DNA from: Phoronis australis
Lineage: Eukaryota > Animalia > Phoronida
Length of the DNA stretch: 64,000 nt
Reading direction: 5' to 3'
NCBI GenBank assembly: GCA_002633005.1
Contig: NMRA01000201.1
Span: forward strand, 9,722 to 73,721
The translations under genes and the position numbers were made by a program. The notes beneath the pieces were generated by a model. It did not search any database and was not told the origin of the DNA. It saw only the letters and a program-made list of their open reading frames with translations. Shown here in pieces: positions 12,192 through 62,617 of this stretch (position 1 is the stretch's first letter; each line of letters opens with the position of its first letter).

Positions 12192-12393
12192 ATGGCTTCT
12201 AGCAGCTGCCTGGTCAACGGCGTGGGTGGCGATGACGTGGGCATGAACATCCTGCGTGTGTTGGAGCGCGGTCTACTCATGACTCGATTCTACCCTAAAA
12301 AGAAGCCAGAGAAGCGGACGTTTCAGGTGAAGCTGGAGACCAGGCAATTAGTCTGGCTTCGAAACTATGGACAACTGAAGCCGGAGGGTACAG
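12192..12393 (+). CDS. PLCG1: PLC-gamma coding exon 1 (N-terminal PH half)
   Basis: MASSS...[14 protein letters not shown]...PEGT; upstream TTTCAGCAG acceptor (12144/12147) implies a 5'UTR exon; GTGAGT donor, phase 1. Confidence 0.93.
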
Positions 12394-27300: not shown

Positions 27301-30300
27301 GAGATTTTATCATAAGCCAAAAATAATCTGCATGAGCTTCATTCTCACCATAATTTAACCATACAAAACAAAAGTGATACTGTCTTGTCTTATCGCATGA
27401 TTCAGTTTTTTGACTTCACAAAATTTAATCAAAGCAGTCAACACTGTCTTACTGTTGTTTGAAACGGTGTGCCAATGTAATAGTCATATTACCGAAGCAG
27501 CTCTCAGTAGGGCGTCAAGTATGGGACAGCATTGTGTGACATTCCAACAAAAGGGCATCACCACCTGATGCATTTTAGTAATCTGCGGATTGCGAAAACA
27601 TTCTACATTGTCATTTAGTAGTCTGACCTGAAGTATGCACCCCTGCTACAAAGTTCCTATGCTTTCTTCCTATCAGTTACTTTAAAGACCTTATCTTAAG
27701 ATTAATCTGGTTCTGTTACCAAAAAATCTTGCCAAATATAACTTTTTTGGTTCACTTCTCTAAAATTGTTAGAAGCATCAGAGAATATATTCGCCAACTA
27801 TAGATTTTGTGTTAGTTATGATGTCTATATCAATTGCTTCCATATAACTTCTTTTAGTAAAGGTTAAAAATGTGTGCCACTAGAACATTCCTCCATCAAG
27901 ATTTTCAAAATGCATTCCAGGTTGAGAGGGTGCAAACTGTCTGGAAATTGTGTGCAAGGATGGAAAAGTTGACATTTTCAGAAGTCCTCTACATAGTCGG
28001 GATAGTGATCTGACATAATGTGTATGTTTTTGTAGAACTTTAAACTTGCTGATGATTACTGAAAATTTCTGCAAACACAACAGAATATCAGTTCAAATTT
28101 TCATTGAGCTTTTCCCAGATTTGTCAGAATGCCTAGGCCAACTTCGCTTATTCAGTTGTAGGAACTGCAGATTATTTCCTTAGAAATAACTGTTGAACCT
28201 CCACTTGAAATGGTGAACGAAGTGTCAGTTGCTACACTTCACTGGCCTGCCAGTAATGTTATCATTAATGAGAAACATCAGTGTTAATGAGTTCAAGGTG
28301 ATTTGGGATAATTTAATGAAATGGCTGTGTGGAAACAGTGCTTTATTGAACAATAGTTGTTTTGGTGCTCAATTGTCTGCAATTTACTAAGTGTATATCA
28401 TTTAGTTCAATTTGTAGTGTTCCACTTGAATGTTCAAGTTAAGGGTGTCAACCAACATACAATAAAGATAATGACACCCCTGGAGATCTCCTTATGAATG
28501 AGACAAGTAGTGTTTTACACTATCTTTGTGCCAAAGTACGTCATAACACAAGCGTTGTAATGATAGCCATGGGCATTCAGCTTGCAAACAATTTCCTGAC
28601 GAGGTTGTTCCTCAAATAGGCACATTTCTATTTTGATCTATAATAATATAACTCAGTCTTTTGTTCTTGTTAACATTGGGTATTAGTTGCAAGGCTGCTA
28701 CTGCTGTTTATAAATAACTTAATGTGGAAGGGAAGTGCTAAAGTCATAGGTCGCCTCGATCATCATGGTTTCAAACGAATAGCTAGATAAAAAATGACTT
28801 TGGCAGTGTTGATTTTGGGGTTTATTGAGAAGGTGTAGTGATGTTGTTTTCTTATTGGCATTGAGGTAGAAATTTGAAGTTGATTGTAATCTTCACCTAT
28901 GTGCAAGATTGAAGCAGATTTATCGATGAATTTCAAGGAACGCCACAAATTAAGGACAAGACATGAATAGAGCAATACGAGAAACACGCTTAATCTTGCG
29001 TAAACTGACTACCGTAACTCTGTGTGATGCAGTCTATGTTTTTAACCAAGGTGATTGGACTCATTGTTATGTGTGACGTGATAATTTTTTACCCCACTGC
29101 ATAAAGGAGCATTACTTAAGAGCACATCGGATTCAGGTGGTTGCCTGATTGTAGCTTCTAATAGATTTCCAACAGAAACCAGTCCTCAATAGAAAAGAAA
29201 TGATATAAAGTGCTCGTCAACTCTTTGTGTCAGCATTGAAACCTAGGACTATGTTCATAATACTCCCAGATTGAAACTCACTGCTGCGACAAGCTTTTTA
29301 TGGTGCAGAACTAACCAATTTTGACTATGATGTGCTGTGGTAATAGTCTGATAAGTGCCCTATGGATGCTTACTTTTGTGAGTGAATATACCAGAATCAG
29401 AATGGCTTTGTGATATATTGGGATGTGTATATTGATGTGATATCTTCCACCTTGTCACCAGTTTTAGATAAGTGCCGTCCACACACACTTACGCTAGAAC
29501 AAGTTACTCCAGGAACAAGATGTTGCTAGGTTTGAGTGCTGTGTGGACGATATATAAAAAAGTGCAACCTTCCCCACTAGTGACAACTTATTCCACATTA
29601 ACAAGGTGGTGTACCTTGTTCTAGGGTATCTTGCACCACTTGTAATCAATCTGTGGCTGCAAAAGTGGGGTACTACCAAGACGGAAATAATTATTAGCCG
29701 CGGTTACATTCAGACGGGTTTTTTTTGCGCTCCGTACTCGTCTTAGATGTCCATTGCCATGCACAGAATGACAACTTCTGCTTTACCCTAGTTATTGGAT
29801 ATGTTTGTGTGTGTGTGTGGACGCTCCACTCAAAAGTGGGGTAAGTTGCACTAGTACAAGTTAGTCTAGGGTAGACAGTGTGTGGACAGGACTACAGAGA
29901 TACATAGCTTTTTCCATCTCAAATAATTAGTGACCGTGTCTGAGTGGTGTTGAAAGACACCACCTAGACCGGATGGGGCTTTTACAGGGGTTGGAAACAA
30001 TTTGGTGGCAATGTCTACTAAGTTTTAGCTAAAATCCTCTTGGCCGCAGTATCAATGCAGAAGACACCAAACTCTTGGTATGATCACCAGGCAGGCTTTC
30101 CTCAGTCAGTGGTATGCACGGTGAAAATACTCCGTATACAAGGTGACCAAACTCTAGTCCCATGGACTTGATGGCCGCTGGTTTAGGGATTTGTCTTTAG
30201 AGGGTTTGGTGACTGCTGGTCCAGAACATGGGTTTGGTTAGAGGATTGGGACTGGAATTTAGAGGCGATGGAATTGTTTCTACCTTTACATGGATCCAAT

Positions 30301-33300
30301 CTCCCGCAGTCCGTGTTGTTCACCTCGACCCCGTCATTTTGCACCATGTAAGTCTCTGTTTAAGATTTTGCTTTGCCTGTCAGTTTGCTCTGTGTCAACA
30401 GTGAAGTGCAATATTGTCATGATAGGTGAGGAATTATGGCTAGACAACCTTGTTTTATGTCACTGTTTGTCTTGAAGACCCCAAATAACGGTCAAATGAC
30501 TTTTGAACATGTTAAATAATAATATGTATCATTGATCGACACAAACATATCATCCCTTCCTTTACTCCTGGCATTAGCTAATTACGCCAAACTTCAATTG
30601 TAACACATGTGAATGTGGTTGTTGGAGTATGTTTTGACCATCATTCTGATCACACAAGTAACATAAATTGCCAAAATGCGATGAATGGTTAGTTTTATTA
30701 TTAACTTACAGTTGTCTACATGATGGCAAGAATCTGGTCTTCTATTCAGACGCCTATTTAATACAACTAGTTTTGGCCTTTCATTCTTTTTTCTGTCTTC
30801 TCACAGTGAAGCAGAGGCATGAAAAGGCCACTTCAGTTATCATTTGACAACCGTAGGTTTCAGTCATTAAATCGTGTTGTCTTGATGTTGTTAAAGTTTT
30901 GGTAAAAATTCTCCATTTTGGGACAGTCTCCAACCTTGAGCAAAACAATAAAATTTAATTTTCTGTGTCCCAAATTGGAAATTTCTTACCACACAGGGAA
31001 TATCTAGGTAGCCAAAACACCTTAAACAAAAAGTCCGTTTAAGGAAGGCTTTAATTTGTCAGTTATTGTTCTGAAGTTGTCTTAGCTTTTCTTCTTCAAC
31101 CCAAATGTTCTCACCAGTTCTTTGTTTACAGTTGACTTGAGGTTAGTCAAGGAGATACGAGCGGGGAAGAACTCGAAGGAATTTGAAAAATGGTCGGATG
31201 AAGCGCGCAAGATAGATTCGTCAGTTTGCTTCGTCATACTCTATGGGAGTGACTTCAGGTTGAAAACTCTGTCACTAGTAGGTCAGTGCTCCGTTATCTA
31301 ATTATCTCTTTAAGTCCTTTATTGATAAAAAAGTTGAAATTAATGACAATTTGATGTTTTGCTCATATTTTCCTGCGGGCATTGTTAGGACTTACTACAT
31401 TTCCACTTAGTCAACATATTAAATGGTTTGTGGGTAGTGACCTATAAAACACTGACTCCGCAGGTGAAACAACTTTAGGCAATAATTGTTGTAATTACTA
31501 TTGAGACTACATGGAAAAAATCAATTCAATTTGTAAACTTCAGAGCGCGTAGGTTTAAGTAGAGAATAAACTTTTGAATATCTTAGCATCATTGACTAAT
31601 TGTTGGAAATGTTATCCCTATCCATATTTGTGGCTAATATGTTTTACCCTAAGGTGCAAAAACCCCCAAGTGCAAAATGGTAAATTTACTAACACAAGGC
31701 GACCTCTTCCTGTAGGATGTCTACAAATATTTTGAAAATGTGATGCGACAAAAGTTTGGTTTAAAATAATGAAGGTGTGATTTTCAATGCAAAATGTATT
31801 CGTGGCGAATTTTCCACTTGCACGAGCGTACACACCTGCGAAATTTCATATTCCCACCAATTGGTTTCACCAAATTTGCAGGTATGTCCCCACTTAAGCC
31901 TAGACGTAAATTTTAGAAGTGGTCCACAATGGACCGTTTTCGCGCAGCACCCTTCCGCTGGCTAAATGAAAGTTTCAAATAGTTTCATTGATAGCCAAGT
32001 ATAAGCATTAGCGTATGATCAATGCATGAAAGTGGTCCTTTAATCTTGGTCCCAAAGATAGTTTGCCCACTATGGTTCGTTTTGTTCACTAATAGCAGAA
32101 TGCACTCTTGTCGTTAGTCTGTACAGAAACTGACCATATTTGTCAAAATTTATTTGTTGCACACAGCCTCCACGCGGCAAGAATATGGCTACATGATCTC
32201 AGGGCTGCAACACCTCGTTAAAGAGACGCAGTGTTCCTCCTACATGCTGCACGTGGAAAGGTGAGTGCCATTTCTCTCCTGATTAAGGTAAAAATTCTTC
32301 AATTTCAGACGAAAATGATTGCTGAGGTTTCCATTTTTCTATTCTTCAGACGTTTACTATATCATTGTAAACACTCACAAGTTACCAAATGTTGTTTGCT
32401 GTACCTTACAAAACATGTTAAAAGCAATGTAAAAAAAGTTGCTTTCTTTGAGAAATTTAATAACTTTACATGTCCGCCGTGTCATGTCTGAAGAATTTTT
32501 ACCGTTAGTACAACAGTTGACGGTATTGAAATACTCTCCCATATGGTAACCTTGACAATGCATAATTACTTTGTATAACTGGCTGTTACAATATAGTCAG
32601 AGACTAAACAGCTAAACAAATATCAATTAAGCAAATAAACACTTCTCGTTAGTTGCTTATCGGCTTGTTACAATCATATAACGAATGGCATTGAATGCCC
32701 GTGACATTCTCTGCGCAGTTCCTTGCCGGATTTATTAATTTTGTCAAATAGGTTTTTACTAAGCAGACAAAGACACTTTCTTGTTTTCAGATGAATTTGA
32801 CATAGTGACTCCTAGTAGCCATTTTTATTATTTGCAAGTCTGTTTTTTGGTGTCCATCTGTTTATTGGCCAAACCATTCTAGGAGTCGGTATGACCATGG
32901 CTGACGGTTTTCAAAAGTTTTGACTACTGTGGCGTTAACTAATGGCAGTTTTGCTTTTTCGCAGCTGTTTCACCTAAGCCCCTGCAAGGTCTTTCTGACA
33001 TTACGCAAGTCTATTTCTATGAAACTGACATTGTATGATGACAACTTTTGGATGTGTCTGACTATCACTGTACCCCCCTAGTGGCTTTTTTGTGTCTACT
33101 AATGAAAGAGTGATTCAGTCAGCTCTGGGGCTTTATTATTGCTGTGACAATTACTCTGATGAGTGTTATTTCTGTCACTCTAATTGCCATTTGGTATTGC
33201 AAAAGTATTAAGAGAATGTTGAATAATGCCATGTCTATGTTTTTTATTTTTGATTTTCGACATGGGAATAACCTTTCGTAGATCAACTGTCAGCCTAGTG

Positions 33301-48300: not shown

Positions 48301-51300
48301 AGCAGACAATCAATTTATTATTGACAGGTAACTGGTTCCGTACATATTGCTTTGTATTTATCAATCAAAAAGTAAATTGGTTGAACAGGGTTATCACCTG
48401 CATGCCTACAGCATCTACAGGTGATGTATTGACTAACAGAGGATGTACTCTTTTGTCAACTTTTAAGAGGCATCTTTTGCACAAATCAACAAAATTCAAT
48501 GAAGTTGGCAGATTGAATTTCACATCTGAAAAAGGTAATTGGCATACGTGACAATATGGTTGGGTTAAGAGTCACTATATGCTCATTTTACCTCTGAATT
48601 GCTTCTTTCACTAGTGACAATATGGTTTGGTTAAGAGTCGCTATATGCTCATTTTACCTCTGAATTGCTTCTTTCACTAGTGACAATATGGTTTGGTTAA
48701 GAGTCACTATATGCTCATTTTACCTCTGAATTGCTTCTTTCACTAGTGACAATATGGTTTGGTTGAGAGTCACTATATGCTCATTTTACCTCTGAATTGC
48801 TTCTTTCACTAGTGACAATATGGTTGGGTTAAGAGTCACTATATGCTCATTTTACCTCTCAATTGCTTCTTTCACTAGTGACAATATGGTTGGGTTAAGA
48901 GTCACTATATGCTCATTTTACCTCTCAATTGCTTCTTTCACTAGGTGCCAGTGGCTGGTCTTGTGCTACTCGGTCTCATGTAAACAAACAGGAAATTTGA
49001 CTTAGATATTGTTGATATCCTCATATTGTAGGAACTCAAATGAACGACATTAAATAATAAGTGTCTCCTGGATTTAACTTAGACTTTCTGAAATTAGAGA
49101 ATTATTGGTTTCTTTTTTACAATTTGAACTGTGTTGGAGAAATGTCTCATTTTGCATAATTTGTCTAATGATTCAGCAGCTCCTTGTCTGTCGCAAATGG
49201 TTCCTCTATGATGTTCTCATATATGCATATGCTAGAGAGAAGCTGCGAAAGCTGTGAAAACATACTCTCTGTGAGGGATGGTACCAGAAGTACCTGAATT
49301 TTACCAAAGGATGCGGAAGAGCTCTCCTTTAGCTTCAAACTCTGAAACAAAGGGCAAATTTATTTAGATAGTATTGAACAATAACTCTTCTCTCCATACA
49401 TCTAATGGTAGGAACCGTTTTGTTTATCTAATTGTGGTGCATGGCCATATGTTTAATTAAACAGTTGACTACTATATTTACTGAGAAGTTGCTTAAAGTG
49501 GAACACTTTTCCGAAACATAGCTTCATTCCCCATCCAAATACACACGATTTTGGGGGTGGCCCAGCTAAACTTAGAAGCTTTGACATGGTTCCACCCACT
49601 TATGCAGATTTTATCAAAAATCTTCTTAGTGTGTGATCTCACAATGTCAGGTCCACTGGAACTAACAAATAGTGTGGTGTGTTTATCAAATGTCTTTTTT
49701 GATGATAACAATCAAAAACCAGAAACATTGAAACTATGACTGTGTGGGATCCATAGGCTTATCAAATCCAGAAACTACAAACCATTATACCCAGGTTAGA
49801 AAGAAAGCATTCTTAAATATGTGTAAATTATGGGATGCAAACAAGTAATGTTTACCCATAATCCTGACCTTAACTAATAGATTTCTGTGAAAAATGTCTT
49901 GATTTAATGTATACTTCTCAGGTTTCATAAAAGGTACCTGGTTACAACTGAGGCAAAAATGATTACAAAATGCTCATTTTTTTCAGTTGTCAGGAGTTTC
50001 TAAGAATGGTGCGAATGTCTGTTGTAACTTTTCAAGATATTGCATTACATTAGCTTTAGTACTAACAGAACTTGAAAATTGTGAAGCTTTTTTGTGGCAT
50101 TAATAACACTTCGTAATAAAATGAGAAATTGAAATTTCTCTTGGTCTTCCACATTATGTCCTAAACGAATGCATATTTCTGTCCCACTAAGAGGTAAACA
50201 GACATACATTTAGTTCAGTCAGGTGACCATAGGGGTCGCCATTTCTTTGTGGGAGTTCTATGAGTGATAGTAGTTCTTATGTTTTGAAGGTGGCAGGGCA
50301 AAAACAACAATCACTGTCGTATCAAGTCGAAGCAGGACCGTGGTCAGATCAAGTACTACCTGATCAGCGACATGCCCTTCGACAGCCTCTACTCGCTTAT
50401 CACGCACTACCGCCAGTATCCCCTGCGGAGTCGTGACATGGAGGTTATCCTCAAGGAACCTGTGCCGCAGCCAGAGAGCCACCTTGGCAAACCGTGAGTA
50501 TAGCTAGATCTGGTCGGATTTTTGTTTTTTGTGGTCTGAGGTTCTTTGATGAGGGCTCTTGGAAAAGTTCAGACCTTTCTTGCCGAAAACAATCACTTTC
50601 TCACCCAGATGTCATGCACACGTGTATTTATTCATTGTACGAGGCTACTTTTTTGAAGCTATTAATGTGAGGTAATGCTGGTATCTTTCCTATTAAATAG
50701 ACATTGCGTAATTATTCAAAAATAATCACTTCATAAAAATAAATTCCAAAATTTTTGTTAACAACGTTGTTGAAAAACTTTCAACACTTTGCATTGTAGC
50801 TCATCCTTGCCAAACAAAATTTTCTGAACAATATTCATGACTAAGATTTTTTTGAAATCCTTTCACTTTCAGAAATGTGTTTGTGTCTGTTAATGTTTCA
50901 GCAAGTTATAAGACTTTGGTGATAAGCATTTGCCAAAATCTTGTACTTGCTTATATCAGAATTTGTGTCTTTGTGTATTTCTTAGCAAATCAGTCTGCTT
51001 TTCAGCAAGTGATGAGCCTTTGGTACCAAACGTTTACCAAAACCTTGGTTGACCAAATTTTTTTTGTTTCCGTCCTGATTTCAAAATACGTATTTTTTTC
51101 AGCTAGTTATAAGCCATTATTAAGCAAAGATTTGGTAAATCGTGTACATGTCAGTTGAAATTGTTCTTTGTCTCTCAACATGTCAAGATACGTCTGCATT
51201 TTAGCTGGTACAATGATGAGGTTGACCGAACAACGGCTGAAGACATGCTGAAGCGAATCCCATGTGACGGAGCATTCTTGCTCCGTCATACGGAGAGTGA

Positions 51301-54300
51301 CCGCCTCTCTTATGCAATATCGTTCAGGTGATGACGCATGTCACCGCCCTGAGTTTTTATCTCTACAAATTCTTTTGTATCTCTGCTTTGCATTTCCCTG
51401 TAGGGACCACAGACAAAACTCCACCACCTTTGCCCATTTATAGTCAAATGCATCAAGCCACAGACTGGTTATTTACCTTTCTATGTATGGAATGTAGGCA
51501 GAGCTTTGTCTGTCGATCCCTTCGTCAGTATAAACTTTCTTCTCTGAACTTTGCTTGAGATGACTTTAGTTGCACTTGTCTGTGACTGACTGTCAGAGAA
51601 CAAAGATTTATACTGTTAAATCTATACACTCGTCAGCCATTGTGCAAACCATGGTTCTTATGTTTTTGTTTTAGGTTATTTCCTGTTATGTCCGCGTTCT
51701 TGTGAAAGCATTTGATGACTGTGTATTTGGCTACAATTGGCAGAAGCCAGTGTTTTGTTCAACAATTTTTGCGAAAAATATAGTCACCCACTTTTCAGAA
51801 ATTTGGCTTTTGTCTTTAGAAATGAGCCACTTAAAAGTATTTTCAAATAAATTTGAACAATTGAATTGATGAATCACTTACTGCTATTGTCAAAAACAAA
51901 ATGTCAAACCTTTGTTTTGTGTTGTACTTCTGTTCCATGCAGTTGAGAATTTTTTTTAACGATGCACTAAAAATCCTGAGTTACTTTCTTTTTCTCAATC
52001 CTAAACTATCAATGAAGTATTATCAATAATCGTGGTGTGCACGGTGACCTCTGCTTGACCTCTGCTCTTGTCCTACTAACATATTGCGGACTTGCCTCCC
52101 CTGTGTGTTTAAATTAACAGCATGGTGTTTTGCATGGCAGATGGTATCACGAGAATCTGAGTCGGGAAGATGGAGAAGACATGCTCAGTAGGATACCGCG
52201 TAACGGTGCTTTTCTGATTCGTCGCCGGGTGGATGAGAGATATTCAAATGCCAAAGAGTATGCCATCTCGTTCAGGTAACAAAGAATACTTTTTTAAAGT
52301 TCTGCTAGAGTAATGGGACTTCATCGCAAAATGTCTTGTTTTTAAAAACTTATTGTCCATCAAATAGTGTGTCGCTTACAAAGTCTGGCATTTTGGCAGC
52401 AAAATGTGTCTTGACTATTTTATAAACTTCAGAGAACATCGTAGTAAAGCTTGTTCCAAAATCCCATGATGTGTCTGTAGAACATTCATAAAAACTGGTA
52501 AAAAATTTTGTTTAATACTAAACCATTCCAGAGTCATCTAATGATGTAAAATTTTGTTTAATACTAAACCATTCCAGAGTCATCTAATGATGTAAAATTT
52601 TGTTTAATACTAAACCATTCCAGAGTCATCTAATGATGTAAAATTTTATTTAATACTAAACCATTCCAGAGTCATCTAATGATGTAAAATTTTAACTGTG
52701 TAATATCTAGTAAATGCTGGCCTTAACAGTATTCATAGCACCCTGGCTTCTTTTTAAGAAATTGAACATTTTTGTGGCATGTTTTTTTAGCTTTTAAGCA
52801 TTATTTTTCTTTGAACATTTTTTGTGTTTGTTTTTTCCATGCTGTTGTGAATTATTTATTTCAATAATATTGCTATGGCAATTGAAATTTTACTCTATGC
52901 TACTTTCTTTTTTGCCATTCTTTTATGGAACTTCATCAGTTAAATGTCCAAAAAACACGTTCTTGGAATTATTTTTGGATGGGCTAGACTTCTTGAAGTT
53001 ATTAGCACTGACCACAACTATAAAACAACAAAATCCATTGTTTAATACAAATTATGTGATTTATTGAAATGGCCATGGCCCAAAGTATAACATGTACAAG
53101 ACAGAACATTGTCAGGTGTGTTACAAGCTGGATAATAAATTGTGACTCTTGAGAGCATGATGGACAAATTTTAGAAGTAGGATATCCGGAGTTCTCATGA
53201 GAGATTGAAATTTAGATGAAGTGGGAGAATGACAAAAACGATCACTTCAGTACTTAACCTGAAGGTCTTGGTACGCACTACAAACTAACACAAGGTGGTA
53301 TTCATCCTCTACAAATACTAGAACTTGTGTCAAATGAGCATGCCTTTTTAGCAAAATTTAGCATAAAAAGAATTTGAGGGTATATTGATAGCAAAGTGAC
53401 AGCATCAACGGCATGATCAGATTTTATTGGAAATGTTCAAGATGAGATCTCAAAAACACTGTTACAGTTCTCTAAAATATTACTTTGTTTTTGTTTTATA
53501 CAACTTTAAATTTTGGTGAACCATTCCTGAGATATGGTGTTCCAAAGTTAGCTAAGTTTGGAAATTTGTCTCTAAGGTCTTACATGAACTGAAGGGACTG
53601 GATGTTTAAAAACTAGATTCTGTGAGATGCTGTAGTTAGGCTTTGGGTGTAGCTATGACTGGCTGTGTTGTTTATTACAACTTTTTTTCAGCATGCTCTC
53701 CTTGCCAAAAGGCACCACAACTCTCATTTATCATCTTCAACTGATGTTCATGTTTCCAAAAATGCTTGAAATTACTATTAAGTCTTTGGAATGCACTAGT
53801 ACACTTTTGAAAGATGTTTTATCACTCAATTTTGCCATTCGTCAAGTTCCAGGATTATGAGATTTTGTGAACATGGAAAACTGCGATTAATATATTCTTT
53901 CCTTCATTTTCACCAGCTTGGAAGGTGGTGAATAGAAACTTTAACGTTTTATAAATTACTACAGCCTTGTATATTGATTGTTGTATTATCACATCATAGA
54001 AAGTGAACTTCAATATTATTCACTTGTCTGGCGTCCATTGTGTTACTGCACCACCATCTTCATTAAATTCTGTGTATTTGAAAATATTATGTTTCATGAG
54101 ATCACCGAAAAAATTTGATCTGGGTGTGATGCTGTGTTGAAATAGCAAAATTTGGAATGAGTTTCAACAAAATTATGTTTAAATAAAGTTTTTAACCTGA
54201 GACACAGAGTATGTTAAATGTATGTTTTTATATGTTATTGAAGTAGTAAGAGTCTCTTGGGTGATAAAATATTGTGTCCCTGTTGTCAACATTCATATGC

Positions 54301-57300
54301 ATGACCAGCACATCTCTACTTGAGGGGTACTCCTCATCCAGCCCCGATACCAAAATCTGCCCATGTAATGTCACCATTTGTTGAAACCCATTTCTGTGCT
54401 CTTCTAGGGCTGAAGGTAAGATTAAGCATTGCAAAATCAAACAGGAAGGTCGGCTCTTCACCATCGGCACAGCACAGTTTGAGAGCCTCATTGAGCTGGT
54501 GCAGTATTACGAGAAGAACCCCCTCTATAGGAAGATGAGGCTACGCTACCCTGTCAATGCCAAGGTGGTGCAGGACGTCGGACTGGTGAGCTTGTGCCAT
54601 CTGGGGGTTGAAAGATCAACTAAAGTGTTGGATGTTAATGATAAATGTTTTAGATTCAAAACGTTCCGTATGATTTAGCTCTGCAAAAACCTTCAAAATT
54701 AGTAATTTTAAAAATATCTGTCGATCCTTTCTGTTTTTTGTTATTTTGATTGACAAATATTTAACTTTGTTGTATTTATTTCTTCACGTCAGTAGCAAAG
54801 AGAGATAAGTCTTGCAATAATTTTTTAGATAAACAAATTCAACTTGCAGTTGACGAACTGAAAGAGCTTGACCAGAAAAAATTCAAACCCTAATCATGTT
54901 TTGGGTACAATTCTGAATTTATACTTGATTAGACTGGAGTCGCCACTTTTGCCACCACTGTGTTCAAAAGTTTTGATCGATTACGGTTATATGTATTTGA
55001 TTAAGATGGAGTTGACTTCTTACATTTAGCCGCCTGACGATGATGCCATATATTGTGGGCCCGACCTCTATATGAACCCTAATGATTTCACCACAAAGGT
55101 AAAAGGTCACATGTGGCATCCAGCTTCCAGTTTGATTGGCTGACTCATACTAACTGCTTGAGTGCGACAATGGCGTGACAAGGTCCCTTACATTGTCAAC
55201 GCCCCAGTTCTCACAGCCAACAGTTTTGTTCAATGACATCTCGGTTTGCATGTTCTGCGATATCCTGCAAAATACCGCATTGCCTGATTCTTGTAAATTG
55301 GTTACATACAACCTTTTGCAGGTGTTTTTTTCTTGACGGATACTCTATTGGGGACTATAATGCATGCATATGCAATAATTTGAAATAAGTCAAATCTTAA
55401 TATTCACCACCAATGGCTTTGTTACAATTGCTGCCATTTTCGTTCTTTATTCTCATCTTCCACTATTTCTGTTAATTATTTTATTATCATCACTCGTAAT
55501 TGAACTTGAAAAGATGAAAAATGTTTTAATCCTTGTTGAGTTTTTGCTCACTGGAGTGAATTCAATATGCCTTGCTTGACGACTGTGACTTCTAAGTGTT
55601 TCCCAATTCAATATGCCTTGCTTGACGACTGTGACTTCTAAGTGTTTCCCAATTCAATATGCCTTGCTTGACGACTGTGACTTCTAAGTGTTTCCCAATT
55701 CTCTTGCTGTTGTCATATTTTGAACCAGCCTTGTCAGCATATTGTCAATCCAGTTGATGTCTTTATTGTTCAATTACCTGCCAAAGATTAACTGTGCACG
55801 TGATATCGCAGAATGTGACTCATAGCTAGTGCATGAATTGAGTGCTTTTTGCTTTGTTTTGCCTAAACTAACCGCACACTGTTCTCCCTCCCTCCAGGAC
55901 TCGGATGCCGGCGCCATCTCTGGGGATGATGTCTACACTGATCCCAACGAGTACATCTCCCAGGTAGTTTAGACCTCAGTTGACCTATTTACGGATGGTG
56001 TGAGACATCCTACAAACAAAGAATTGTGGGATAGTGGTCATCCAAAGTAGCACTGCTAGTAAATGTAGAAATAAATGTTCTCTAGAGATCACATGAGTTT
56101 AGAAGCATTTTAAGCTGCCAGAAATCTAGTATACCTCAGAAACTATGGTATTTTTTCACTTGTTTACCACGCAATATGTCCGACAATTAAAATTCTGTTT
56201 TGTCAAATTTATTCGCAAACATAAAGAATTTTGTTTATTACTAACATGGTGTTTGTTGTGTAGATGTTATAAAACAACAATTGGCAAAGTTTCCATTATT
56301 TGTAGCAAAGTGAAAATGGTAATTTTGTGCAAAATAATTGGAGAATTACCACGGTAAACGTGTAGCCATCTATGCCATATCAACTGCCAGCTTACCAAGC
56401 AGACAACCGCCGTCATGGCATTTCCTTTATTCTGGATAGGATGACCCATATCCTACAAGTCTGTGCTCTACAATGCACACATATTGGTTTTCGTTCTTTG
56501 TGAAAGAGATAAGTCAAACTTCACTCTGATACATGCCCGTAGCTATTGACAAGGTTTCATAGAGTGGGTTCAACAAAGCAAGTTTTCTGAATGATGAATT
56601 TACACAAGCTTGCAACTCCAGATGTCGCTAGTGTTTTGTGAGAAACCCATGAGAATAATGGTGCACTCTTGCAAAATGGCCACCGATGAAATTGATTGAA
56701 TGGCTGTGCTGGAATCTTGCGTTGTGGGAGAATACTCTGAATGCTTCCATTACATAAACCAAGGCTTTTTTCGTTATTGTCTCATGAGTAGCATTGTCGA
56801 ATGCACCCATTTTAAAAAAAAATGTTCTTATTAATACTAGGAAAGTTAAACTTGTTAAACTTCGCAGGATATGATTTTCCTTCATTCCAAATTGTCTACA
56901 GGAAAGGACAGTGAAACTGTTTTATTTTGTAAAAGTTTGTTCGTGCCTTTCTGGGCTTAATGATCAACTTTTTACATTTAAGTTTATTTTGTATTAAGGT
57001 AATCACTAATGGTAACTTACATGTTTAAAAGTTGCGTGAAAACTTTACCAACAATTGAATTCCTAGCTGTAAAGTCTCTTTTTGGACATTAACCCATCCA
57101 CCACTGTTAGTTTATGCTGTTTTGCCAGTTTTTTATGAGATCCGTTTCTCTTGCATACTGATACATTTTGGCATGTTTTGTGTAAAACTGATGTCAGCTG
57201 GTTCTTATTGTAATCATTCTACTTTTGATTTGCATTTTACAGCAATTCTTCACTTATTCATCATGGCTGATAAATGAATTTCGATTTTGTCAAATTTGCT

Positions 57301-60300
57301 TACAAAAATATATCCATGGCTTGTACTGTCATGTCATAAAACAACATGTGGCGAAGTTTCCCGTATTTGCAACAAGGTAACCAGCCTTTAAAAAATGGAA
57401 AAACAACAGTTTTGGTAATTAGTTTTGTGTGCAATAAATGAAGAATTACCGTGCTCCTCAGTCAGCATGAGCATGTGTCTATCTGATCACTGACCTTGAC
57501 CTTGCCAATGTTTATCACTTCAATCTAGTACTGCATCTTGACAGATTTTAACGCAATCATCTAATGTGTAAGCGAACGTTATTACAATCTGGATTTCACT
57601 TACAGAGCTGTCTCCTTCATACTCCGTACATAACATGCATAGTGCTCATCGGAGGCTGAGTGTACTTGGGCACAGTTTTGGTGGATTATAAAAATAAAAG
57701 TACAGAAAATGAAGATCATTAGTTTCATTTCTATACTATTTTCTGGTATTGACGCAAGATTAGCCTACTTTTTGAAGTATACCCTGTGCATTGTTCTGTG
57801 CTATTGTTGTAATTTGCGGATGGTTTTTGCTGTCCTCAAAAAATTTTGGATTCACTGGACAGTAGTGTTTGGAAGGTAAATACTGAATGGATGATTATAA
57901 ATAGGTGTACTCGACTTCAAAAAATATTTTTCAAACCTTTTCTTAACTGGAGAATACTCTAAATGATTTCTGTTTGTTATGTATCGTCCAAGTGGTTTCC
58001 ATCCATACCGGAACATTCATGGTATCGGCATGAAAACAGTTGCCAGAAAGTCATCAGTTTTGGCACGGTTGGTCAACTATCCCGAAATTTGGCTGCTGCG
58101 TATAAGTTGCTGGTGGTACCTCAATACCATTTGAAAGTAGAAACCAAGTGAAGTGCTTTGGGGTGGAATTTTTTATGCAAAGTCGGAAGGTTAAATGTCA
58201 TTGGTTCAGTTTACATTGGCTGCAAATCTGTCTGTAAAAATATTGAATTGATGCGGTTTCAACCTTATCCTTTGTACCACGAGACAAATTTGAAAAAGCT
58301 ACAAAAATTCAAATCTAGTGGGCCTAAGAGAAGATAACGCCTCTCGTGACCTGGTTGTTACAGATTCGTGTGAAGGCTCTCTATGATTATCAAGCACAGT
58401 TAGAAGACGAGTTGTCATTCTGTAAGCATGCAATCATCACAAATGTCAACAAGCAAGACAGTGGATGGTAAGCATGTTTGGATACTTATCGTTGTGTCAC
58501 TTGTTTATAGGTTGACTGTAATCCCCTTGTAAAATGCAATCAACTATTAGCTGTGACACTGTCTTGGCACTGATAGACTTTTTTAAGTAATTAATCTGAT
58601 GATGAATGCAGCTCAGAGGAATGTATTGCACACTGCACTGAACATTAACTGTGAGCATTTGAAAATTTTTGGGAAAAGACGCAACTTATATATGGCATAC
58701 TCTTGCTCTTGGGGGTAACTAACTCAGTAGTCTGTAATATGCATCATCGTCTTCTTGACAAGAAGACAATTTGCAGCAGTACGAGAAAACAATAGAGCTG
58801 AAAAAAAACAAAACATTTTTCTAGCTTGGCACGCAGCTTGTTGTATTTTTCCTGTGGTTTCACTGTTCTGCTAGCTGTACTGTGAGTATCATGATAATAG
58901 GTCACACGGATAAATGGAAGTAATCTTATAGTCATGTATGGCCCTTGAGAAAGGTCACAATCTGGGACATCATAACTCAGAAACAGCTGATCAGATTCAT
59001 ATGAAACTCAGACACCATGCTTTGTGCATTGTTCTCCAAAACGCTTGTAGAAATTGTTCTTAAAATGTTTCACTTTGCTTGAGGGGCTTTTATAAATAGG
59101 ACTTTAATCATTTTCATGAAAAAGTTAATTTACATAAATTATACAAAAACTACATGATAATTTAGATAAGTGTACCAGCGTTTTGAGATTTTATATTGAA
59201 CATCAAACAAAATTTACCCAAGGCATGTTCTGGATACCATTGCCTTCTTATGAATGTACCTTAATTCGTTTTCGCTAAACATTAATAAAAACACATGGTC
59301 ACATGTCACAGTGAATGTCAGATTGGTATTAAGTCAAAAATCAAATTCTACAGGATTTTGATTTTTAGAAAAGACATACTTTTGCTGGGCTAAAAGCTAT
59401 AGTTTGAAAGGTAGTTGGCTTAACACACAGACTTATCAGTAAAGTCCTTCCTTAAATCACAAGGCTTATGGGAAAGTTGATGCCATTTACCTGTAATTAT
59501 GCATACCTGGTAATTACAGGTGGAGGGGTGACTACGGAGGTACTAAACAGGGCTGGTTCCCGTCGAACTACGTACAGGAAATAGAAGTACAGGAAGAGAC
59601 CGAGGACTCAACGCCATTAGGCACACTGCAGAAGGGCTCCATAGATGTCGTTGGTTGTATCGTTGGTAGGTTTTACTGCTCTGAAAATATATGGTTTTTG
59701 TAGACTTTTGTCTAGTATTATTATGTAATTATGTTTGATATTGATTTTCTTCTGTAGATTTGATTGAGTGTTGCTGTAGATTTAAGAATCTAAAAACAAT
59801 AGCTGCATTCCCGTGTATTTCAGATTCCCAGAAATTTTGCGAGAATCTTTTACAGGAATTATTTACACTAATATTTTGTGTCGGCATGTGATTAAGAATC
59901 CCTTTTCAAACCTCCCTGAGACTGACAGTTTTGTGTATGTTAATTGACTCAGAATGATCCTAATCCTAAACCTATTGATAAAACCACTGGCCAAATATAA
60001 TTCTTTGATTGTGCAGATGGTAGTATTCACTGCCACTGGCTTCATCAATTCCAATTTTGAATTTTGCTTGACTTCCTTAGGGCAGCGTTGTATATTTAGC
60101 TGTGTGCACTGAGAGATTTGCCTTAAATCTTCCATAATTCCTTCACTGCAGAGCCTGTGTGTGGCGAGAGGATGAACCAGGAATACGTTTTCCGCATCAT
60201 CGCTAACAATGGTGAGAAGTTAGAGATTGCGGCGCGGACACTCGAGGACATGAACGACTGGATTAGTACACTGAGGGAGTGCACTATACTGGCTGAGAAA

Positions 60301-62617
60301 ATGGTAAATGTTTGCTGCAACAATGTCACGTGACATGTTATTTTGGTGTCATCTGAGCAGTCACAAGTATCTTAACTCCAAATTCAATCTTTCTTCTAGG
60401 ATATCATATTTTTTATAATTCCTGTTCAAAATACAGTACACGTCGAAAGTATACAGTCAAAATAGCAAGAATTTGCAGATCAACATTGGTCTATCAGATG
60501 ATTTGAATCAGCAATCTTTTATGTCATATCAGGTTTTATTGTTCGAATTGGCTGTCTGCTCAGTAGACATTGTGGGGAGTGTATGTCTCCGTTATTGTGA
60601 ATGCCTATCATCTCAAGAATTCACCTCTATGCATAAATTGTCAAGTAGGCCATTTTGGGAACCTATTTCAGTCCCAACTGAGACTGAAGATTGTTTATCA
60701 GTTTTCTCCAGACTATCTCTCTTTAATTCATTTTTACCAGTTAAGAATGCATGTTACATGTTATGTCAATTGAAAAATACTGTGAAAATATAAACGTGAT
60801 ACATTAGAGCCCAACATGTGGTCCCTAAGTTGATAAAAATATCAGCGTTATTCACTTCGGCAGCCATTTTGTTGATGCACCTGTCCCGGCACCTGAGTTA
60901 GAAAATTGAAAATTAGGTAATATATGTCGTTTGTTTTGAAAAAGCATTATTTGAAAACAAGTGTTTACCAAACTGGTTTGCATTTAAATTCATTTCATGA
61001 AATTGTAATCAAAATGAAGTTGAGGGAAAAGCTTTGCTAGCGCAACTACAGCAGACGTTTCTGTTTCTCTGGAGTCATGTGCCTCTCATAGTAATTTAAA
61101 CCAGGTGTGATTGTGTTGTGATTTGTAGAAAATCGACTGCAAGAGAATGGAAAGGAACTACAACATAGCCCAGGAGTTGTCCAACTTGGTGGTATATTTT
61201 AGGACAGCCCACTCGCAGCAGCTCATGCCTGATGGTAGGTTATGCAACATGACTATTGCCTTTTGACATCCTGTTTCACTCAACACGACTATTGCCTTTT
61301 GACATCCTGTTTCACACAACGTGACTATTGCCTTTTGACATCCTGTTTCACACAACATGACTATTGCCTTTTGACATCCTGTTTCACACAACGTGACTAT
61401 TGCCTTTTGACATCCTGTTTCACTCAACACGACTATTGCCTTTTGACATCCTGTTTCACACAACATGACTATTGCCTTTTGACATCCTGTTTCACACAAC
61501 ATGACTATTGCCGCCTTTTGACATCATGTTTCACACAACATGACTATTGCCTTTTGACATCTGTTTCACACAACGGCAAGTGTCAAATGTTTTGATTTAG
61601 TTTTGTGTTCCTCTTAAAAATTGAGTTGTGTAATAAAACAAGTTAACACTTCTGTTTTTTGTGGTTGTGGTGCGGAGATCATAGGGGTTAGTTTTGACTT
61701 TAATGAATCACTACTTTGATGTTCGCTATTTTTTATTCATTGTGCTTGATGTATGCTTCAAATAATTACTAAACTTGAATTTCTTTGCCACTCGGGAACA
61801 ACGATTGTTTTTCAACAAATTTTTTTTGGTTGTTAAGAGAAGTTGAGGAATGATTGGTAATGAAGCTTGAAACTTGGGACTGAAGTCAGGGTGTATGAAA
61901 TGTGTCCTAGATTGCTTGTGTCATGATTAAGCGTTGTCGGCATATTTCCTGTTTTCCTGTTCCTAGGTTTACCAGGCCCGTACTATGAAATGATGTCATT
62001 TCCGGAAACCAGGGCAGAGCGATTGGTTTCTAAACTAAAGGCCAAGAAGTTCTTGCAATATCCTTTGAACAATTTACCATGTTCTTAAAGGGCATTCTGT
62101 AGTGAGGTGCTAATAAACAGTACTTAGTGGTTGTGAAATGTACCAGTATTGATGGAATGACGAAAGCTCATTGTACTGACTATTTACGGCCACATGTTTC
62201 TTATAGTCACCAGCCGATCATGATAACTTTACCTTGTCTGCTGATTATTTCACACACTGCTTTACTTCCGACAACTGTATGTCAAGTTGATAAAGTCAAA
62301 ATATTTCCTTTATTTGATGAAAGTGTCAGGTATTTTTTCAGTTCTGTTGAGAGCAACTTTGCCCAGAGGGCGCCGTAATTGCTTCGGTTTTCATTAAAGG
62401 TGTAAAATACATAAAACTGAGTTGTTTACACTATCTTGTATCTTTGTTTTGTTATCAAGATCATGTTATGTCTTTTTCTTAACCATGTTCACATACAACC
62501 ACCACCAGTTTAGTCGAGTCTACCCAAAAGGTCAAAGGTTAGACTCATCGAACTACGACCCCATGCCCATGTGGAACTGTGGTAGCCAGCTCATAGCTCT
62601 CAATTACCAAACTCCAG
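12192..62617 (+). CDS. PLCG1: Phospholipase C-gamma (PLCG1/PLCG2 ortholog), multi-exon; 3' end (rest of Y-box, C2) lies beyond the window
   Basis: 26 exon positions join in frame. Motifs: PH ([10 protein letters not shown]), X-box ([27 protein letters not shown]), two SH2, SH3 (ALYDY...WWRGDYGG...WFPSNYV), split PH, Y-box ([17 protein letters not shown]). Confidence 0.96.
12954..13886. mobile_element. Non-autonomous DNA transposon with 5-bp TSD (hAT5-like)
   Basis: CAGTGGCGGATCTAGG...CCTAAATCCGCCTATG termini; CCCTA on both sides. Confidence 0.7.
13191..13260 (-). pseudogene. tRNA-derived sequence (SINE head or tRNA pseudogene)
   Basis: Minus strand reads GTGGTGGAGCAGTGGTAAAG (A box)...GTGAGTTCGAGTC (B box) at tRNA-like spacing; acceptor stem not intact. 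Confidence 0.6.
14095..15647. mobile_element. Non-autonomous hAT-like DNA transposon with 5-bp TSD
   Basis: TIRs CAGGGCTCGACATTAG / TTAATGTCGAGTCCTG; CAGTG on both sides; repeated subterminal GGACAA motifs. Confidence 0.8.
15715..16793. mobile_element. TTAA-TSD non-autonomous element (Kolobok-like)
   Basis: TTAA|GGTTGTCTCAAAC...GTATGAGATAACC|TTAA; contains a (TAA)n microsatellite at about 16615-16654. Confidence 0.7.
18160..20268. mobile_element. DNA transposon remnant with GGGCAATTCC termini (Sola-like, tentative)
   Basis: GGGCAATTCC...GGAATTGCCC; flanks AGTT/AATT; TACGTCCGTCAC-like motif repeated near both ends. Confidence 0.6.
23880..25225 (-). mobile_element. Decayed non-LTR retrotransposon (LINE) reverse-transcriptase fragment
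   Basis: ORF 24875-25225 [18 protein letters not shown]...[12 protein letters not shown], followed by a frameshifted GVRQ-like RT motif near 24810; left boundary approximate. Confidence 0.85.
25272..25434. mobile_element. Short MITE of the CAG(G/T)GGCGGATC family
   Basis: TAGGGGTGGATCCAG...TGAATCTGCCACTG termini; related to the elements at 12954 and 45702. Confidence 0.6.
26255..26780 (+). repeat. Dispersed ~500-bp repeat family copy (others at about 34050, 41525, 47090, 53400 reverse, 58930)
   Basis: Shared consensus resembling AACTTTGGAACATCATATCTCAGAAATGGCTGATCGGATTC...CTTTCAGAAAA. Confidence 0.75.
31132..31281 (+). CDS. PLCG1: PLC-gamma exon 2 ([20 protein letters not shown]...[18 protein letters not shown])
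   Basis: TTTACAG/GTCAGT, 150 nt, phase 1-1. Confidence 0.95.
32167..32260 (+). CDS. PLCG1: PLC-gamma exon 3 ([31 protein letters not shown])
   Basis: ACACAG/GTGAGT, 94 nt, phase 1-2. Confidence 0.9.
33443..33950. mobile_element. PIF/Harbinger-like MITE
   Basis: TIRs AGACCATTTCATACTGAC / GTTAGTATGAAAGGGCCT; 3-bp A/T-rich flanks; repeated AAGTTAAC..CGTTCATAC motifs. Confidence 0.6.
35912..36094. mobile_element. Small element with 41-bp perfect inverted repeats enclosing a hammerhead motif (Penelope-derived)
   Basis: AAGAATCAATAAATCTATTACTGGACTTACGGTACGTGGAA (35915-35955) and its exact reverse complement (36051-36091). Confidence 0.75.
35955..35996 (-). ncRNA. Minimal type-I hammerhead ribozyme motif (one core substitution)
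   Basis: AGUGGC-CUGAUGA-A-GUCCU(GAGG)AGGAC-GCAA-CGUA-GCCAUU: stems I and II pair; ACGU palindromic stem III; GAAA reads GCAA. Confidence 0.7.
36822..36869 (+). CDS. PLCG1: PLC-gamma exon 4 ([15 protein letters not shown])
   Basis: TTTTAG/GTACGT, 48 nt. Confidence 0.9.
37571..37652 (+). CDS. PLCG1: PLC-gamma exon 5 ([27 protein letters not shown]), EF region
   Basis: TTGTAG/GTAAGG, 82 nt, phase 2-0. Confidence 0.9.
38781..38858 (+). CDS. PLCG1: PLC-gamma exon 6 ([26 protein letters not shown])
   Basis: TTTCAG/GTAATT, 78 nt. Confidence 0.88.
39515..39706 (+). CDS. PLCG1: PLC-gamma exon 7 (VYSEHF...[11 protein letters not shown]...FLDDPFR...FTHQE)
   Basis: TTCCAG/GTAATA, 192 nt. Confidence 0.92.
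40457..40572 (+). CDS. PLCG1: PLC-gamma exon 8 ([14 protein letters not shown]...[17 protein letters not shown])
   Basis: TTTCAG/GTATGT, 116 nt; X-box start with catalytic His. Confidence 0.96.
40607..40714. repeat. Perfect 12-bp minisatellite (GTCTGTAAGACA) x9
   Basis: Read directly; produces the spurious CKTV/TDCL ORF repeats. Confidence 0.97.
41357..41442 (+). CDS. PLCG1: PLC-gamma exon 9 ([28 protein letters not shown])
   Basis: CCGTAG/GTGAGT, 86 nt. Confidence 0.96.
41525..41975 (+). repeat. Dispersed repeat family copy (same family as 26255)
   Basis: AACTTCGGAACATCTTATCTCAGAAATGGCTGATC... Confidence 0.7.
42501..42621 (+). CDS. PLCG1: PLC-gamma exon 10 ([39 protein letters not shown])
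   Basis: TGATAG/GTAAGT, 121 nt. Confidence 0.96.
43412..43497 (+). CDS. PLCG1: PLC-gamma exon 11 ([28 protein letters not shown])
   Basis: TATCAG/GTTTGC, 86 nt. Confidence 0.95.
44373..44455 (+). CDS. PLCG1: PLC-gamma exon 12 ([27 protein letters not shown])
   Basis: TTGCAG/GTAGGC, 83 nt. Confidence 0.95.
44802..44842 (+). ncRNA. Degenerate Penelope-type hammerhead motif
   Basis: CUGAGGA-U-GAUGU(UGGC)ACAUC-AAAA-CAUGUC: stem II intact, palindromic ACAUGU stem III, G12 changed to A, stem I weak. Confidence 0.45.
45275..45341 (+). CDS. PLCG1: PLC-gamma exon 13 ([22 protein letters not shown])
   Basis: TAACAG/GTAAGT, 67 nt; a same-phase GTGCGT donor lies 6 nt upstream. Confidence 0.85.
45702..45861. 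mobile_element. Short MITE with 5-bp TSD (hAT5-like)
   Basis: CATAAGCGGATCCAGG...CCTGGATACACCCCTG; TAGGT on both sides. Confidence 0.75.
46101..46174 (+). CDS. PLCG1: PLC-gamma exon 14 ([24 protein letters not shown]), split-PH N part
   Basis: CTTCAG/GTGAGT, 74 nt. Confidence 0.93.
46618..46743 (+). CDS. PLCG1: PLC-gamma exon 15 ([19 protein letters not shown]...SSEE)
   Basis: CACCAG/GTAGAC, 126 nt. Confidence 0.93.
47090..47545 (+). repeat. Dispersed repeat family copy (same family as 26255)
   Basis: AACTTCAGAACATCATATCTCACAAATGGCTGATCGGATTC...; explains ORF 47155-47523. Confidence 0.75.
47715..47884 (+). CDS. PLCG1: PLC-gamma exon 16, nSH2 first half ([10 protein letters not shown]...[19 protein letters not shown])
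   Basis: GTCCAG/GTGAGT, 170 nt; FLVRES motif. Confidence 0.96.
48548..48943. repeat. 66-bp minisatellite x6
   Basis: GTGACAATATGGTTGGGTTAAGAGTCACTATATGCTCATTTTACCTCTGAATTGCTTCTTTCACTA. Confidence 0.97.
50290..50493 (+). CDS. PLCG1: PLC-gamma exon 17, nSH2 second half ([13 protein letters not shown]...[17 protein letters not shown]...[12 protein letters not shown])
   Basis: TTGAAG/GTGAGT, 204 nt, phase 2-2. Confidence 0.92.
51205..51327 (+). CDS. PLCG1: PLC-gamma exon 18a, cSH2 first half, alternative copy A ([41 protein letters not shown])
   Basis: TTTTAG/GTGATG, 123 nt, phase 2-2, no stop; paralogous to 18b. Confidence 0.9.
52141..52275 (+). CDS. PLCG1: PLC-gamma exon 18b, cSH2 first half, alternative copy B ([45 protein letters not shown])
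   Basis: TGGCAG/GTAACA, 135 nt, phase 2-2, no stop; paralogous to 18a. Confidence 0.9.
52500..52692. repeat. 46-bp minisatellite x4
   Basis: GTAAAATTTTGTTTAATACTAAACCATTCCAGAGTCATCTAATGAT. Confidence 0.95.
54408..54585 (+). CDS. PLCG1: PLC-gamma exon 19, cSH2 second half ([15 protein letters not shown]...[27 protein letters not shown])
   Basis: TTCTAG/GTGAGC, 178 nt, phase 2-0. Confidence 0.96.
55030..55098 (+). CDS. PLCG1: PLC-gamma exon 20a, cSH2-SH3 linker copy A ([23 protein letters not shown])
   Basis: ATTTAG/GTAAAA, 69 nt, phase 0-0; aligns with human EPDYGALY775EGRNPGFY783VEANP. Confidence 0.88.
55559..55701. repeat. 46-bp minisatellite x3
   Basis: AATTCAATATGCCTTGCTTGACGACTGTGACTTCTAAGTGTTTCCC. 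Confidence 0.96.
55898..55963 (+). CDS. PLCG1: PLC-gamma exon 20b, cSH2-SH3 linker copy B ([22 protein letters not shown])
   Basis: ACTAAC branch point, strong pyrimidine tract, CCAG acceptor, GTAGTT donor, 66 nt, phase 0-0; paralogous to 20a. Confidence 0.85.
56165..56352 (+). repeat. Second dispersed repeat family copy (others at about 27130, 34741, 57262)
   Basis: Shared CAAYATGKCCGACA...TTTTGTCAAATTT...TTTTGTGCAAAATAA..GAATTACC; old and diverged. Confidence 0.55.
58364..58467 (+). CDS. PLCG1: PLC-gamma exon 21, SH3 ([35 protein letters not shown])
   Basis: TTACAG/GTAAGC, 104 nt. Confidence 0.96.
58930..59445 (+). repeat. Dispersed repeat family copy (same family as 26255)
   Basis: CATCATAACTCAGAAACAGCTGATCAGATTCATATGAAAC...ACATGGTCACATG. 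Confidence 0.7.
59520..59665 (+). CDS. PLCG1: PLC-gamma exon 22 ([20 protein letters not shown]...[17 protein letters not shown])
   Basis: TTACAG/GTAGGT, 146 nt. Confidence 0.95.
60152..60303 (+). CDS. PLCG1: PLC-gamma exon 23, split-PH C part (...YVFRII...[21 protein letters not shown]...)
   Basis: CTGCAG/GTAAAT, 152 nt. Confidence 0.93.
61129..61234 (+). CDS. PLCG1: PLC-gamma exon 24, Y-box start ([35 protein letters not shown])
   Basis: TTGTAG/GTAGGT, 106 nt. Confidence 0.92.
61245..61574. repeat. 36-bp minisatellite x9 immediately after the exon 24 donor
   Basis: CAACATGACTATTGCCTTTTGACATCCTGTTTCACA; produces the [15 protein letters not shown] repeats. Confidence 0.97.
61967..62057 (+). 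CDS. PLCG1: PLC-gamma exon 25 ([30 protein letters not shown])
   Basis: TCCTAG acceptor; ends at the U12-type ATATCCTTT donor. Confidence 0.9.
62058..62492 (+). other. U12-type (minor spliceosome) AT-AC intron
   Basis: 5'ss ATATCCTTTG; branch site TTTTCTTAAC at 62474-62483; terminal AC at 62491-62492; removal restores [18 protein letters not shown]. Confidence 0.93.
62493..62617 (+). CDS. PLCG1: PLC-gamma exon 26 ([41 protein letters not shown])
   Basis: AC acceptor (U12), GTTAGA donor, 125 nt; Y-box signature. Confidence 0.94.

Follow-up and report, generated by a model that had tools for sequence, protein, structure and literature searches.

Do two pairs of duplicated exons at the activation switch of an enzyme yield matched isoforms, or does each pair set its own part of the switch? 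This question is raised by the gene for PLC-gamma in a stretch of 64,000 nucleotides (nt) from Phoronis australis (GenBank assembly GCA_002633005.1, contig NMRA01000201.1, positions 9,722 to 73,721 of the forward strand; this whole stretch is hereafter the window, and all coordinates refer to it), where the exon for the first half of the cSH2 domain (exon 18) and the exon for the linker between cSH2 and SH3 (exon 20) each occur in two copies. A preliminary description of the sequence had proposed that the duplicated exons encode the two partners of an intramolecular switch and that the gene could make two matched lock-and-key isoforms. The gene carries two old tandem exon duplications at the activation switch, of which exons 18b, 20a and 20b are spliced, and we consider it probable that the two choices act as separate dials, not as matched pairs.

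Comparison of the window with 14 PLC-gamma proteins (tblastn) places the gene on the plus strand from 12192 to 62616, with exons for PH, EF-hand, X box, split PH, nSH2, cSH2, SH3 and Y box in this order; most of the gene is inside the window, and its 3' end (the rest of the Y box and C2) is outside. All exons given below are on the plus strand. The constant exon 17 (50290..50493), which encodes the end of nSH2 and the nSH2-cSH2 linker, is defined by its splice sites and by an RNA joint (50493>52141). The first half of cSH2 is encoded by exon 18a (51205..51327; short type, 123 nt, 41 codons), an open frame with AG/GT ends, and again by exon 18b (52141..52275; long type, 135 nt, 45 codons), which has RNA joints on both sides; both copies match Pfam SH2 positions 1-40. 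The second half of cSH2 is encoded by the constant exon 19 (54408..54585), supported by splice sites, a Pfam match and RNA joints on both sides. Exon 20a (55030..55098; 69 nt), the cSH2-SH3 linker of the ancestral type, has the RNA joints 19>20a and 20a>21, and the second linker copy, exon 20b (55898..55963; 66 nt), has the RNA joint 20b>21, its upstream joint being deduced. The constant exon 21 (58364..58467), the start of SH3, was located by tblastn and is joined in RNA to 20a as well as to 20b. Each of exons 17 to 21 is bounded by AG/GT, and the copies of a pair match in phase, those of exon 18 having one phase and those of exon 20 another, in agreement with the preliminary description, which had called the four copies open, phase-matched and intact at their splice sites. 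The length of each copy is a multiple of three, and 16 of the 16 combinations of including or skipping the four copies are free of stop codons; the reading frame therefore does not enforce exclusivity.

The peptide alignment of 18a with 18b scores 104, which was reached by 0 of 2000 shuffles, and that of 20a with 20b scores 40, which was reached by 1 of 2000 shuffles; identical nucleotide columns number 72 of 135 and 36 of 69, respectively. The introns flanking the copies have similarity scores at control level, which argues that the copies are old, not recent. With dissimilar flanks and with RNA joints present, a recent duplication or an assembly artefact was rejected. Both pairs consist of adjacent homologous copies with matching phase and intact splice sites, and thus belong to the tandem duplicated exons. 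Profile scans of the window with 96 exon-18 and 95 exon-20 peptides recovered two copies of each exon, the exon-18 profile additionally matching the nSH2 exon 16; third copies of exon 18 or exon 20 in the window were rejected on this basis. A tblastn comparison with 14 homologues identified no further duplicated exon position between 12192 and 62616, and the earlier count of exactly two duplicated positions holds for as much of the gene as the window contains.

The residues of the switch were mapped by alignment to PLC-gamma1 in PDB 7t8t, to which the published residue names fit at a constant offset. According to passages in PMC3532599, Arg675, Arg694 and Arg696 of PLC-gamma1 bind pTyr783, and residues pY+1 and pY+3 lie in pockets formed by F706, L726, L746 and Y747. 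Exon 18 holds the three arginine positions and F706, which is identical in 18a and 18b, and exon 19, common to all forms, holds the equivalents of L726, L746 and Y747, i.e., three of the four peptide-reading residues. Standard SH2 topology places the EF and BG loops in exon 19, on the C-terminal side of what exon 18 encodes. As stated in parts of PMC7004563, these loops clasp C2 and also engage the pTyr783 region. In 18b, the equivalents of Arg675, Arg694 and Arg696 are all kept and the loop after them contains 4 additional residues, and in 18a the Arg696 position is Thr. Among 22 lophotrochozoan exons tallied, this position is Ser or Asn in 18 short-type exons (including a 45-residue variant in Dreissena) and Arg in 3 of the 4 long-type exons. 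The linker copies also differ: 20a has equivalents of both Tyr775 and Tyr783, five residues apart, and 20b keeps the Tyr783 equivalent, with Ser at the Tyr775 position, a spacer one residue shorter and Thr in place of Met at pY+1. This mapping bears out the claim that each partner of the pTyr783/cSH2 switch is encoded in part by duplicated exons.

Splicing was followed in three RNA runs (X1, X2 and X3), all stranded and labelled with this species; ~18-19% of each run was compared with 50200-58600, and a joint was listed if at least one run contained 3 reads. Read counts (X1/X2/X3) were 5/6/2 for 17>18b, 8/8/3 for 18b>19, 3/2/1 for 19>20a, 5/5/3 for 20a>21 with 20b skipped, and 9/2/3 for 20b>21. 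Exon 21 was thus entered by 13 reads from 20a and 14 reads from 20b, which corresponds to near-equal use. In all three runs, the longest short side of the 20b>21 reads is 64 letters, one base more than the counted part of 20b, and the 20a reads likewise run one base over in X2 and X3. The 20b acceptor shares one base with exon 19 and two with 20a; because the 20b>21 reads stop fitting 1 base upstream of 20b, they likely come from exon 19. In the sampled RNA, 18b is likely joined to both linkers. At the 3-read threshold, the joints 18a>18b, 20a>20b, 17>19 and 19>21 were not listed in any of the three runs. With regard to strict mutual exclusivity, both linker copies were observed in spliced RNA, and the joints listed for exon 18 all belong to 18b. 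A further run, X4 (contigs), contributed repeat matches only, among the pieces listed. Two repeats lie in the introns of this region, namely a dispersed repeat between 18b and 19 (52960-53510), on which reads of either strand lie with numerous differences and loose ends, and a 46-nt tandem unit present three times between 20a and 20b (55559-55696), with reads whose joints go back 46 or 138.

Steric or frame-based exclusion was rejected as the cause of the choice, given that the introns between the copies measure 813 and 799 nt and that double inclusion stays in frame. No clear shared docking site for competing RNA pairings was found among the longest inverted repeats around the exons, and the perfect 12-nt pair 55253-55264 / 55802-55813 is, by our estimate, at about chance level in 3.8 kb. 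Motifs that we take to be of the RBFOX type (GCATG) and the QKI type (ACTAAY) are commoner near the alternative exons: within 150 nt, GCATG occurs 4 times near the 4 alternative exons vs. 4 times near 24 constant ones, and ACTAAY 3 times vs. 2 times (p ~0.02 for each motif, uncorrected, with approximate edges for the constant exons). This excess is a weak pointer to control of the alternative exons by splicing factors. It is likely that a transcript in this animal contains one exon of each pair, which would be picked by splicing factors, not by frame or intron length.

The proposal of two co-adapted isoforms, in which 18a fits one linker and 18b the other, accords with the position of both exon pairs around one shared exon, with the single models of four relatives (short exon 18 with linker a in Lingula and Chaetopterus, long exon 18 with linker b in Owenia and Capitella), and with chiton models that lack the combination of the short exon with linker b. 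Strict pairing is, however, at odds with the RNA samples (p between 0.0002 and 0.0015): for pairing of 18a with either linker, p = 0.00024 and p = 0.00031 as per-run products, and p = 0.0015 and p = 0.0006 for pooled runs, as calculated from junction counts, with no read covering both choices and all six 18a cells set at 2 reads or fewer. The isoforms of relatives, mostly predicted gene models like the homologues used throughout, speak against it as well. RefSeq has 8 models for the chiton Liolophura, which differ solely at exon 18, at exon 20 and by two single-residue indels, and which combine the long exon 18 with linker a (3 models) or linker b (2 models) and the short exon 18 with linker a (3 models), such that the long exon occurs with both linkers; in other molluscs, a single exon 18 goes with linkers that vary or are stacked. 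Furthermore, 3 of the 4 residues predicted to read the peptide map to shared exon 19, and the fourth residue does not differ between 18a and 18b. We therefore give the matched isoforms of the preliminary description very little credence.

Across relatives, linker variants were found in 7 of 15 sets with more than one model per species or series, all of them from molluscs (7 of 9 mollusc sets vs. 0 of 6 other, non-lophotrochozoan sets), and exon-18 variants in 1 of 15, that of the chiton; this tally excluded a tick cluster, whose linkers differ by an N-terminal extension. In the models of Octopus, Haliotis, Bradybaena and Mercenaria, the linker varies and exon 18 is single. Forms with two linker copies in tandem occur in Octopus, Bradybaena, Plakobranchus, Elysia crispata, Mercenaria and the assembled sequences P0208 and P0213, and a form with three in Ruditapes. 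The spacer preceding the Tyr783 equivalent is 5 residues long in 20a, as it is in 12 of 12 outgroup linkers; 20b has a spacer of 4 residues, as does the second linker copy, but never the first, in 7 of 7 stacked models. The upstream Tyr is retained in most b-type linkers of relatives, and is lost only in 20b of Phoronis australis and in some copies of Octopus and Plakobranchus. The duplication is thus conserved beyond this genome: both pairs of alternatives recur in the chiton models, and those of the linker also in cephalopods, gastropods and bivalves. With 18b as the query, a word-based search gave no matches, and HMMER gave 57 proteins, many with long-type exon frames, a number that counts proteins and not taxa. 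Separately, all linker copies are skipped in three models of Octopus and Haliotis (P0066, P0072 and P0191), which consequently have no Tyr783 equivalent; if real, these linker-less forms would be a phosphorylation-insensitive PLC-gamma.

In the constant-exon tree (679 columns, 28 of the 41 alignment rows, one out-of-frame segment excluded), the protein encoded in the window falls within a starred lophotrochozoan clade (98) and is closest to that of the brachiopod Lingula (81, unstarred). In the exon-18 tree, a starred clade (98/92) of short lophotrochozoan exons comprises 18a, the short exon of the chiton and 12 more; 18b and the chiton long exon fall outside it, in an unstarred group (86/89) with Owenia, Capitella and chordate exons. 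Exon 18a is 71% identical to the Lingula exon, and the exon nearest to 18b is that of Owenia (71%). These comparisons suggest that the copies likely had a single origin before the annelid, mollusc and Phoronis lineages split. That split is Cambrian or older. A still earlier origin, in which the exon-18 pair predates the protostome-deuterostome split and splicing programmes cell-type-specific PLC-gamma tuned to receptor vs. soluble kinases, strikes us as doubtful. Under this scenario, which we hold to be doubtful as a whole, vertebrates would have retained the three-arginine 18b type, arthropods and most ambulacrarians the other type, and lophotrochozoans both exon-18 types along with a duplicated phospho-linker, the mollusc forms carrying two or three activating tyrosine sites in tandem.

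If the two choices act as separate dials, exon 18 would set the phosphate-binding half of cSH2, i.e., its grip on the phosphate and hence the activation threshold, by changing how tightly the phosphorylated linker draws cSH2 off the catalytic core. Exon 20 would set the kinase target, i.e., which kinases activate the enzyme and how many sites are written. Soluble kinases require both Tyr775 and Tyr783 in PLC-gamma1 (parts of PMC7004563), from which it follows that the choice of linker would change the activating kinases. The peptide-reading, C2-clasping surface encoded by exon 19 would be constant across isoforms, which is consistent with free mixing of the alternatives and with the stacking of linkers on one SH2 type in molluscs. 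Natural, long-kept variants are available in this gene and its relatives: the linker may carry one tyrosine site, two such sites or stacked ones, and the pocket may have or lack the third arginine, in an enzyme that is otherwise identical. Cooperation between Tyr775 and Tyr783 in PLC-gamma is called an open question in a passage of PMC7004563, and because these variants affect exactly the parts concerned, it becomes directly testable. A hidden isoform choice also matters for work on PLC-gamma in the eggs and neurons of molluscs and annelids, for which databases often list one copy.

Several observations weigh against the reading of separate dials. No 18a joint was listed in the three runs at the 3-read threshold, and the joint counts are compatible with an 18a share from zero up to ~25%. 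Exon 18a might thus be silent in this animal, leaving the linker choice alone live; we regard this as quite improbable, because 18a has kept an open frame, canonical splice sites and its identity to the Lingula exon, despite flanking introns without remaining similarity, and because read depth gives weak hints of 18a in X1 (a depth of 0.01 in the bin 51324-51604, which fits a read ending near the 18a donor) and in X3 (depth in the 18a bin, with both neighbouring bins empty). The 19>20b joint, too, was not listed at the 3-read threshold, its existence being deduced only. The contrast in the phosphate pocket is not universal, since the chiton long exon has Ser at the Arg696 position. Separate exon-18 duplications were not rejected by AU tests on 41 columns, which gave p = 0.17 for this animal and p = 0.44 for the chiton. 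The exon-20 tree lacks resolution and places 20b near the single linker of Lingula. The evidence from relatives rests mostly on predicted models, among which the single models of Lingula, Chaetopterus, Owenia and Capitella look paired, and the absence of short exon 18 with linker b from all 8 Liolophura models leaves room for partial coupling.

Such coupling could run one way, with a tissue-restricted 18a joined only to 20a (the ancestral-type enzyme) and 18b joined to either linker, through a shared splicing regulator and not through co-adaptation of the protein parts. Exactly these 3 of the 4 combinations occur in the chiton models, 18a is rare in the sampled RNA, and the GCATG and ACTAAY excess near the alternative exons would fit a regulator of this kind. 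However, the argument is based on 8 predicted models of one species, models with the short exon 18 and linker b exist in Solemya, Potamilus, Octopus and Haliotis, and the upstream ACTAAC motifs may be mere branch points. We judge one-way coupling unlikely, and favour separate dials as the explanation of the two exon pairs.

Other features of the window lie outside the switch. The first PLC-gamma intron spans ~18.7 kb (12392-31128). The Y-box part of the gene contains an AT-AC intron of the minor class (62058-62492), which is the one place in the window that fits the minor donor pattern, has a branch-like motif right before its AC end and leaves an open frame when its flanks are joined. On the minus strand, an exon of a ThiF-family activating enzyme (2519-2719; Pfam PF00899, E = 4e-14), presumably the SUMO-activating subunit UBA2, is transcribed away from PLC-gamma. 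The open frames 3211-3585 and 7058-7249 have no Pfam match; the Cys-rich start of the former resembles what we take to be a THAP finger. A run of N occupies 7885-7957.

The duplicates of the PLC-gamma switch exons are real and conserved and, apparently, undescribed: we found no account of this arrangement in PLC-gamma in the literature searched, which comprised neither subscription journals nor supplements, and the alternatives are present, without comment, among automatic RefSeq isoforms. A survey of tandem duplicated exons in humans (PMC9741552) mentions neither PLCG1 nor PLCG2 in its main text. From passages of the same survey, the kinase FYN (FynB/FynT) is comparable in that it has tandem duplicated, alternatively spliced exons for a linker adjoining SH2 in an enzyme of tyrosine-kinase signalling, and a title cited there reports that the exon choice modulates autoinhibition. 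FYN differs in having one exon pair, in a kinase, whereas PLC-gamma here has two pairs, in a phospholipase, one of them in the SH2 domain and the other in its intramolecular phosphotyrosine ligand. The exon clusters of Mhc, Dscam and the CACNA1 family likewise consist of homologous, phase-matched, old copies that are swapped within a gene, and several clusters in one gene are known in systems of this type (passages of PMC9741552). Unlike mutually exclusive clusters, the PLC-gamma linker pair is not strictly exclusive in relatives, where models and the assembled sequences P0208 and P0213 contain two or three copies and some models contain none. In vertebrates, PLC-gamma diversified through gene duplication; what the putative switch described here shares with the PLCG1/PLCG2 switch is the domain order and the conserved equivalents of Arg675/Arg694 and Tyr783, and the vertebrate exons have, like 18b, Arg at position 696 and group with it (86/89, unstarred).

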